Positions 2,379 to 4,076 of a stretch of 30,453 bases of DNA are shown one piece after another. The notes under the pieces were generated by a model. The model made no database searches, was not told the DNA's origin, and worked only from the letters and a program-made list of their open reading frames with translations. Source of the DNA: Burkholderiales bacterium (lineage in GTDB: Bacteria; Pseudomonadota; Gammaproteobacteria; Burkholderiales; SG8-39); NCBI GenBank assembly GCA_035637375.1, contig DASPXL010000122.1, forward strand, positions 1 through 30,453. The letters are read 5' to 3'. Both the position numbers and the translations under genes were made by a program. Each line of letters opens with the position of its first letter. Position 1 is the first letter of the stretch.

Positions 2379-4076
2379 CTATTCGTAGGGCTCCCGGTAG
2401 CGCGACGTGATCGGATAACGCCAATCCTTGCCGAAACCCCGGTGCGTGATGCGGATTCCGATCGGCGCCTGGCGCCGCTTGTACTCGCTGCGATGGATCA
2501 TCTCGATCACGCGCCTCACCTCGCCTGAGCCGAAGCCCTGCGCGACTATTTCGGAAGGGCTCATGTCGTTTTCCATGTACGCCGAAATGATGGCGTCCAG
2601 GACATCGTACGACGGCAGGGTGTCCTGGTCGGTCTGGTCGGGCCTGAGCTCCGCGGAGGGAGCGCGGGTCAGCACGCGTTCGGGAATGACGTGCTTGACG
2701 CCGTTCCGATACCGGCACAGACGGTACACCAGCGTCTTGAGGATGTCTTTGATGACCGCGAACCCTCCCGCCATGTCGCCGTAGAGAGTGGCATAGCCGA
2801 CCGCCATCTCCGATTTGTTGCCGGTGGTCAGGACGATCGCGCCGAATTTGTTCGACAAGGCCATCAGCAGCGTGCCGCGGATGCGCGCCTGGAGGTTCTC
2901 CTCGGTCGCGTCGGGGGGAAGGCGGCTGAATTCTGTTGCGAGCGACGCGAGAAACGCATCGAACACCGGACCGATCGGAATCTCGTCGTAGCGCACCCCG
3001 AGGTTCCTGACGAGCTCGCGGGAATCTTCGAGGCTCATATCGGAGGTGTATTGCGAAGGCATCATGACCGCGCGCACCCGCTCCGGTCCGAGCGCATCGC
3101 AGGCGATGCACAGCGTCAACGCCGAGTCGACTCCTCCGGATAGGCCGACGAGCGCTCCGGGAAATCCGTTCTTCCCGACGTAATCGCGCACTCCGAGGCG
3201 CAGGGCCTTGTACACTTCCGGCTCGAGCGACTCTTCTTTCGCGGTTTCGCCCCGCTGCGGTTCGCCGTCGGCAACCGTCACGAATCCCAGCGTCTCCTCG
3301 AAGGACGGCAACCGGCAGGCCACCTCTCCCCGGCGGTCGAGGGCGAACGAGGCGCCGTCGAAAACCAGCTCGTCCTGGCCTCCCACCATGTTGGCGTAGA
3401 TGAGCGCCATGCCGGTCTCGGATACCCGCTCGCGCATCACGTCGTAACGGGACTCCTGTTTGCGCATGTGATAGGGCGAGGCGTTCAGCACGAGCAGCAC
3501 CTGCGCGCCCGCCTCGCGCGCGGCCCGGGGCGCCTTCGCTTCCCACGCATCGGCGCAGATATTGATGCCGACGCTCACCTTGTCGGCGCGCGGCCGGGTG
3601 GTGAGCGGTCCCTGATCGCCCCAGGTGTCCTCGCAGATGTTCACGCCGAAGCGGGTCTCCCCTACCGTGAACACGCAGGCACGGTCACCGGGCTCGAAGT
3701 AGCGTTCCTCGTCGAAAACGGTGTAGTTCGGCAGCGTATACTTGTGATAAGTGCCGACGATCCGCCCGTCCCGCAGGACCGACGCAGAATTGTGGCGCTT
3801 CCCCTCGAATTGATGCGGATGCCCCACGACGAGCGTGATGCCGGCCACCTTGCGCGCCAGGCCCTCGAGCGCGGCCTTGCAGTCGCGATAAAAGCCGTCG
3901 CGCAGGAGCAGGTCTTCCGGCGGGTAGCCGCACAACGCGAGCTCGGGCGTGAGCACCAGGGCCGCGCCGGCGGAGCGCGCCCGTTCGCAATACTCGAGGA
4001 TCTTGGCGGCGTTGCCGGCGAGGTCGCCCACAGTACAATTGATCTGGGCAATCGCAATCTTGACGATGCTCGCCAT
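2379..4076 (-). CDS. nadE: Glutamine-dependent NAD+ synthetase
   Basis: N-terminal nitrilase-fold glutaminase ([31 protein letters not shown]) fused to the synthetase domain ([52 protein letters not shown]). Confidence 0.96.

Follow-up and report, generated by a model that had tools for sequence, protein, structure and literature searches.

The first 30,453 nucleotides (nt) of contig DASPXL010000122.1 of a Burkholderiales bacterium (assembly GCA_035637375.1), hereafter called the window, carry the gene nadE for a glutamine-dependent NAD+ synthetase, followed by a glnB-type gene for a PII protein. The NadE reaction is the last and essential step of NAD+ synthesis, and the nucleophile elbow of a nitrilase-fold domain ordinarily varies very little compared with the rest of the protein. 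In the window NadE, the strand and elbow that hold the nucleophilic Cys are present twice, with the Cys148 and Cys174 motifs exactly 26 codons (78 nt) apart. An initial annotation made from the sequence had reported the two copies at this spacing, and translation of the open reading frame (ORF) confirmed both the distance and the positions of the two Cys codons exactly (Table 1).

Table 1. Features of the nadE locus in the window, with the ratio of nonsynonymous to synonymous change (pN/pS) for the segments in which it was calculated. aa, amino acids; pLDDT, predicted local distance difference test.
Feature	Position (nt)	Strand	Description	pN/pS
glnB-type PII gene	1975–2313	−	112 aa; Pfam P-II, E 1.5e-33; 65 nt downstream of nadE	
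nadE	2379–4076	−	565 aa; glutamine-dependent NAD+ synthetase type 2 (dimeric-type, PII-linked), from ORF translation, Pfam, NCBIfam and 4f4h match	0.20 (whole protein)
NAD synthetase (ATP pyrophosphatase) domain, aa 289–537	2466–3212	−	Pfam PF02540 NAD_synthase, E 8.6e-73	
Glutaminase (nitrilase-fold, CN_hydrolase) domain, aa 6–268	3273–4061	−	Pfam PF00795, E 6e-32	
Unit 2 remainder, aa 179–194	3495–3542	−	Helix 181–188 completing the fold, leading into strand 193–198	
Copy 2, aa 169–178	3543–3572	−	Orphan second nucleophile motif, GINICADAW; Cys174 (3555–3557), Ala175	0.10
Linker, aa 153–168	3573–3620	−	Probable degenerate remnant of the unit 1 helix; pLDDT <50	0.49
Duplication unit 1, aa 143–168	3573–3650	−	Copy 1 strand and elbow, then Gly/Pro-rich linker	
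Copy 1 strand and elbow, aa 143–152	3621–3650	−	Predicted working nucleophile elbow, ICED; Cys148 (3633–3635), Glu149	0.017

A duplicated strand–elbow–helix unit in a type 2 NadE

By every catalytic and architectural criterion that we tested on its sequence, the window NadE is a type 2 NadE-Gln. Its predicted catalytic triad comprises Glu45 (nt 3942–3944), Lys112 (nt 3741–3743) and Cys148, corresponding to the Glu-Lys-Cys triad defined for the nitrilase superfamily (PMC6946656), and the P-loop SGGVDS lies at aa 313–318; the three triad residues and S313, G314, G315, D317 and S318 were invariant in alignments of 54 and 48 sequences. The NCBIfam equivalog NF010588 (PRK13981) matched at 816.3 bits with a cut-off of 479, the insert splitting the match into two stretches. 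The closest solved relative is the Burkholderia thailandensis enzyme 4f4h (E 1e-199), compared with E 1e-39 for the octameric Mycobacterium tuberculosis enzyme 3dla, and a Foldseek search with the predicted model also placed 4f4h at the top, with template modelling scores of 0.79–0.83 for the dimeric type (4f4h, 5kha) versus 0.35–0.42 for the octameric type (3dla). Type 2 NadE enzymes are regulated by PII and NAD+, and islands of PII and nadE genes have been described (PMC7196632); kinship to 4f4h together with the adjoining glnB therefore suggests that the window NadE is of the PII/NAD+-regulated kind.

The usual state of this family is a single GxxIC[ED]DxW elbow. One motif was found in 149 of 150 family representatives (clusters at 50% identity), in line with the initial annotation, which had taken a single motif to be the norm for nitrilase-fold glutaminases, and two motifs in the remaining 1 of 150. 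The window NadE departs from the usual state with two motifs and still satisfies the catalytic requirements. Both copies map to the same place in solved structures: the HMMER alignment of the window NadE to the Protein Data Bank (PDB) entries 4f4h and 3n05 broke into two domains, in which both copies fell on the same target residues (163–173 of 4f4h, FGVVICEDVW). As DNA the copies are ~55% identical, the two 78-nt units agreeing in register at 43 of 78 nt, where the background is 24.2 ± 4.1 and the next-best value 36 (z ~4.6). The two 10-residue motifs are identical at 6 of 10 positions, which is not significant alone, more than half of the shuffles reaching at least 6; because this identity is insufficient, the significance of the repeat rests on the profile and DNA-register evidence and on the rarity of two motifs among the family representatives.

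The origin of the intervening linker could be read from single-copy relatives of the same GTDB family (genera g20 and g27), which read FGLTICEDVW-GPQAPAMAKAAGAQ-. The linker of the duplicated form starts WGPQGP...RPDA and matches the native single-copy helix cap ICEDVWGPQAP of these genera. Because the head of the linker matches native sequence, unit 1 appears to consist of the strand, the elbow and a helix that has decayed to a linker, and unit 2 of the same element with its helix intact. Among 185 sequences the linker measures 14–18 residues with few exceptions, two of them longer; its indels are of whole codons only, and G153, G156, P157, R161, P162 and V167 within it are mostly conserved; the APRAAR.AGAQ sequence of the unit 2 remainder is kept in every form, whether double, decayed or single. 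Orthologues outside the clade align with a gap of 26–28 residues. We also considered translational bypass of the 78 nt, or an untranslated insert, and ruled both out, as the segment is in frame and stop-free, its indels are whole codons and several linker residues are conserved in the protein. A 26-codon in-frame tandem duplication of a strand–elbow–helix unit is thus almost certainly real and ancient.

Distribution and age of the duplication

Of 32 genomes sampled from two GTDB genera, 31 have the intact double motif, which also occurs in at least 185 protein clusters formed at 90% identity. Its carriers all belong to a group of uncultured Burkholderiales from soil and water, represented by metagenome-assembled genomes (MAGs) labelled Burkholderiales bacterium or Betaproteobacteria bacterium; a cultured carrier was not identified among the clusters, whose names carry MAG labels only. 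Among 40 related genomes, 21 other species of the window's genus encode a full-length orthologue that has both motifs and ample synonymous divergence, and both motifs occur in 4 of 4 genomes of a second genus of the family (g38), in all 120 best metagenomic clusters and in separate clades around P0121, P0122 and P0424. Clades that are only ~65–75% identical overall have the intact double motif in common, and one double-motif protein is encoded on a 4.02-Mb contig. The second motif is therefore conserved in relatives, and the partial DNA identity of the units, their conservation across genera and the restriction of all indels to multiples of three uphold the earlier view of an old in-frame duplication rather than an assembly repeat. 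The duplication occurred once, deep in the radiation of uncultured Burkholderiales. An assembly or sequencing artefact that falsely duplicated a 78-nt stretch, conceivable in that the source genome is a fragmented MAG (463 contigs, 77% complete), has next to no probability, given that the DNA copies are only 55% identical and that the same structure recurs in the 92 near-identical members of the window's 90% cluster (independent assemblies from JGI, ENA and NCBI), in the 21 genus orthologues and in the 185 or more clusters.

Three further observations concern the distribution of nadE. A family-level genome search with a 131-aa query from the glutaminase segment (E <= 1e-10) returned matches in only 8 of 34 sampled genera of the GTDB family; the other 26 genera, among them many with genomes >90% complete, had no match to that query and may use a different NadE type. 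One species of the window's genus has, in addition to an intact copy on contig C374, a second nadE on another contig (G003:C23:6900–8557), which is split in two, an in-frame TGA occurring around residue 203; the second gene could be a pseudogene, MAG strain heterogeneity or a frameshift error. In the double-motif cluster P0391, one member is labelled 'Pseudolabrys sp.' (an alphaproteobacterium) in NCBI among cluster mates that are betaproteobacterial-type MAGs, which is probably a binning or labelling error.

Copy 1 as the probable catalytic elbow

Two AlphaFold2 runs were made, one on an alignment with single-copy outgroups and one on double-motif sequences only, and the best of five models was inspected for each. 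In both runs the strand 141–147 and the turn 148–151 of copy 1 occupied the canonical slot at high pLDDT, residues 153/154–177 fell below pLDDT 50 and had no secondary structure, and helix 181–188 and strand 193–198 again had high pLDDT. The models thus agree with the initial annotation that one copy must be looped out, and both place the Cys of copy 1, Cys148, in the catalytic site. Copy 1 retains the family consensus ICED.W. Its Glu, at position C+1, corresponds to an active-site residue of human and M. tuberculosis NadE, and its Trp, at C+4, to the residue that controls the entry of glutamine in the human enzyme (PMC6946656). Among ~690 sequences we found neither decay of copy 1 nor an insert upstream of the first Cys; all decayed forms had lost copy 2, never copy 1. 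Guided by the modelled slot, the ICED.W consensus and the loss of copy 2 in every case, we consider that copy 1 very likely supplies the ground-state nucleophile. The models give good support to a looped-out excursion of the linker and copy 2 at the mouth of the glutamine site, with copy 2 predicted to be unnecessary for catalysis.

Purifying selection on copy 2

Substitution rates were calculated from 21 orthologues of the window's genus, in which synonymous divergence was ~0.4–0.6 in all segments (Table 1). Parsimony on the genus tree assigned 22 synonymous and 1 nonsynonymous change to the copy 2 core (aa 170–178), compared with 65 synonymous and 55 nonsynonymous changes in the linker (Fisher test, 1e-4) and 478 and 300, respectively, in the rest of the domain (Fisher test, 3e-4). 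This pattern of codon change demonstrates strong purifying selection on the copy 2 core in the window's genus. The residues kept are those of the catalytic elbow, namely G, N, I, C, D and W, together with the alternating hydrophobic pattern of the strand, and no new ones; Cys174 is invariant in the genus and is followed by a fixed Ala where copy 1 has Glu. Gene conversion was ruled out as an explanation of the conservation, the two copies agreeing at 20.14 of 27 nt within genomes and at 20.15 between genomes (permutation p 0.58).

Repeated loss of copy 2

The relatives of the window NadE record several fates of the repeat. Around P0121, copy 2 ranges from intact, via forms with point decay (GVNLGADSW, GINTGADSG, GINICADTC) and scrambled inserts, to absent in clean single-copy ICEDTWEAAAP forms of 535 aa, with copy 1 intact throughout. 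An insert devoid of copy 2 is found in genera g32 and g34 and in part of g25. Decayed versions of copy 2 are rich in Gly, Asp, Ser and Arg, and intact ones are hydrophobic. Within the window's own genus, copy 2 was lost once, in G004, by a 6-codon deletion and divergence. In another family, locus L022 (G038:C29) has an insert after ICEDVW (GPQGRAQGEPRPFLHGEHAVASESGPAP) with no trace of copy 2; its nadE frame is open for 1069 codons, probably as a GC-rich read-through upstream of the true start.

On gene trees built from alignments stripped of the insert columns (LG+G4), double, decayed and single forms were interspersed, requiring a minimum of 17 state changes (62 rows); scored as double versus not-double, the states required at least 13 changes (275 rows) and gave 8 independent pairs on well-supported branches. 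Forcing the insert-bearing rows together made the tree 509 log-likelihood units worse (approximately unbiased (AU) test, p 5e-7; 66-row tree). Monophyly of insert-bearing forms is thus rejected, which implies that single-copy forms were secondarily derived many times.

One group of single-copy enzymes bears directly on the second motif. These ICAD-type NadE proteins (for example P0413–P0480, G037 and G040; uncultured Burkholderiales or Betaproteobacteria) are ~66–74% identical to the window NadE and, unlike it, have no insert and measure 532–536 aa; their sole elbow, GxNICADVWEE, resembles copy 2 of the window NadE, the Cys being followed by Ala and the Trp by Glu in both. The ICADVWEE clade comprises at least 47 clusters and is nested among insert-bearing forms, a basal placement with the outgroups being rejected (AU p 0.006). 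Up to 12 consecutive nt are identical in register between the two copies, most often the 10-nt run AACATCTGCG, and slippage at AACATCTGCG would yield exactly NIC–AD.W. From these comparisons, the ICAD-type enzymes are probably products of deletion between the repeats that retained the copy 2 elbow. When we resolved the repeat in silico, the form keeping copy 1 scored 821.7 bits and the form keeping copy 2 scored 819.1 bits against a hidden Markov model (HMM) of the single-copy family; taken with the natural single-copy enzymes, this fit suggests that either elbow has been used as the sole one in evolution. The initial proposal of a spare or swappable nucleophile, as a candidate function of the double form, thereby gains evolutionary support, in that single-copy descendants keep either elbow. 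Separately, P0475, which lies inside the ICAD clade, has reverted to ICEDVWEE, which indicates that natural enzymes have switched back and forth between Ala and Glu at the position following the nucleophile.

Proposed competition of two elbows for one slot

The explanation that we favour, with confidence somewhat better than even, combines the duplication with a catalytic copy 1 and a copy 2 that is looped out yet competes for the slot of copy 1. The duplication copied the whole unit of strand, nucleophile elbow and helix of the glutaminase domain; the strand and elbow of unit 1 (Cys148, Glu149 and Trp152) together with the helix of unit 2 (aa 181–188) would now complete the fold. Left over would be the decayed helix of unit 1 (153–168) and the strand and elbow of unit 2 (169–178, with Cys174), forming an excursion of ~26 residues that begins directly after Trp152, at the entrance to the glutamine site. 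Copy 2 may still compete for the catalytic slot and occupy it part of the time, much as in engineered proteins with alternate-frame folding. A copy 2 that inserted and did not catalyse would be harmful, so that it would be kept competent until it became unable to insert; escape would be open through wrecking its ability to insert or through deletion of one repeat, and both outcomes are seen. We prefer slot competition because copy 2 keeps the residues of the slot and has gained no new ones, because escape has been repeated and because descendants appear viable with either elbow. As the reason for the conservation of copy 2, it is a tentative suggestion by analogy, in which our confidence falls short of even.

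Several points weigh against this explanation. Copy 2 is dispensable, having been lost once in the genus (G004) and at least 8–13 times in the wider tree, and because it is repeatedly lost, any role that it has is not essential. Simple slot competition does not explain the fixed Glu/Ala difference between the copies, and no alignment column tracks the retention of copy 2 beyond ~2.5 of the 8 pairs of double and not-double forms (275-row tree). Monophyly of the ICAD-type enzymes was not rejected (AU p 0.09), so that they may stem from a single deletion event, and we do not claim multiple origins by recurrent deletion; less probably, they arose through an independent Glu-to-Ala change. The AU tests carry moderate weight, their groups having been named after the tree was seen and the trees being gene trees under LG+G4, and the boundaries of the copy 2 core were likewise set after the alignment was viewed. 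AlphaFold is biased in systems with duplicated segments (PMC12344692), and the best of five models was inspected. Finally, the carriers are all uncultured, and their double-motif enzymes are known from sequence and predicted structure.

Possible alternative roles of copy 2

The strongest rival is that the linker and copy 2 form an orphan loop with a role of its own, covering the glutamine entrance as a lid, mediating contact with PII (GlnB) or feedback control by NAD+, or forming a strand between subunits. The loop emerges right after Trp152, whose equivalent gates glutamine in the human enzyme (PMC6946656), and type 2 NadE is regulated by PII and NAD+ (PMC7196632), with glnB 65 nt downstream in the window; copy 2 is under purifying selection, and the contrast between its hydrophobic intact form and the Gly/Asp/Ser/Arg-rich decayed versions suggests that the intact copy is buried somewhere. 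However, the conserved residues are exactly those of the catalytic elbow, with no new ones, which would be unexpected for a new docking site, no co-varying partner position was found, and the AlphaFold monomer shows no docked conformation. The gene order is equally silent: nadE and glnB form a tight same-strand pair, their order is preserved in almost every related locus that extends far enough to reveal it, and glnB follows nadE in relatives with an intact, a decayed or no copy 2, so that the adjacency is uninformative about copy 2. The initial suggestion of a PII-contact element has thus gained no support, and we regard a separate role as unlikely.

Less probable still is a natural switch by alternate-frame folding, in which either the Cys148–Glu149 or the Cys174–Ala175 elbow would complete the fold, with the balance set by PII, NAD+, the redox state or glutamine. 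Alternate-frame folding is an established behaviour of engineered proteins, in which the orphan segment is disordered (PMC12344692). In such proteins (calbindin and green fluorescent protein switches) one segment folds and the orphan is mostly unstructured, and the AlphaFold picture of the window NadE is alike and agrees with what the conservation of copy 2 suggests; the engineered switches differ in being designed, usually circularly permuted and ligand-driven, whereas the duplication in the window is natural, internal and tandem and is known from sequence and prediction. If it exists, such a switch would tune or gate the use of glutamine and would provide the first example in nature of a principle hitherto restricted to engineered proteins. 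Exchange of frames would then add a new regulatory principle to the control of NadE2 by PII and NAD+, and would supply a benchmark from nature for structure prediction, in which duplicated segments are poorly handled.

Two further accounts of copy 2 appear improbable, and to a similar degree. In the first, Cys174, on a flexible loop beside the active site, would be a resolving or regulatory thiol whose reversible disulfide with Cys148 protects the glutaminase or switches it off under oxidising conditions. The glutaminase of type 2 NadE does require reducing conditions, dithiothreitol (DTT) being without effect on the ammonium-driven reaction (PMC7196632), and the invariant Cys174 sits on a low-confidence loop 26 residues from Cys148; yet the dependence on DTT was seen in single-motif enzymes, for which no second Cys is needed (PMC7196632), and a resolving Cys would not demand the conserved G-x-N-I and D-x-W around it. 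In the second, copy 2 would be a functionless relic, conserved through generic constraints such as the avoidance of aggregation or misfolding, or simply slow to decay. Its repeated loss or scrambling in sister lineages, and once within the genus, fits this account, as does its treatment as disordered by AlphaFold. Neutral decay, however, does not agree with the 22/1 changes of the core versus 65/55 in the linker at a synonymous divergence of ~0.4–0.5, nor with an intact motif common to clades only ~65–75% identical.

Far less probable than these is the reverse assignment, in which Cys174 is the true nucleophile of the folded enzyme and copy 1 and the linker are looped out. In its favour, copy 2 runs directly into the fold-completing helix, single-copy ICAD enzymes are numerous and the form keeping copy 2 fits the family HMM nearly as well as the other, but both AlphaFold runs chose copy 1, selection has constrained copy 1 more tightly than copy 2 (pN/pS 0.017), and decay of copy 1 was seen in no lineage and decay of copy 2 in many.

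Comparison with known enzymes

Characteristic features of the type 2 NadE-Gln enzymes of B. thailandensis (4f4h), Herbaspirillum seropedicae and Azospirillum brasilense, namely the two domains, the triad, the SGGxDS P-loop and the nadE–glnB linkage, are all shared by the window NadE. The known enzymes have a single FGxxICEDxW motif, whereas the window NadE has, right after it, an insert of 26 residues that repeats the motif as GINICADAW, as read from its sequence. What is familiar here is therefore the enzyme, a type 2 NadE-Gln; what appears new is a second nucleophile motif kept under selection. In another NadE lineage, an 11-residue insert follows CEDxW (ICEDIWNDxxxWxxRxY...DP) at the same insertion point, which shows that the site between the elbow Trp and the next helix tolerates loops; that insert is shorter and unrelated in sequence, and unlike the window insert it has no second Cys motif. 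A search of the available literature found no paper linking NadE or nitrilase-fold enzymes to a duplicated nucleophile motif.

For specialists in protein evolution and in NadE and PII, the family offers a rare natural record of a folded enzyme absorbing an internal tandem duplication, with relatives that display every way out, by point decay, scrambling and clean deletion keeping either elbow. It may also represent a natural instance in which two segments compete for a single structural slot.

Neighbouring genes

A FemAB_like/GNAT gene (4182–5303, plus strand; PF04339, E 6e-154) is located upstream of nadE in divergent orientation, and beyond this gene lies one for a DEAD-box RNA helicase (5313–6716, minus strand; PF00270 and PF00271).

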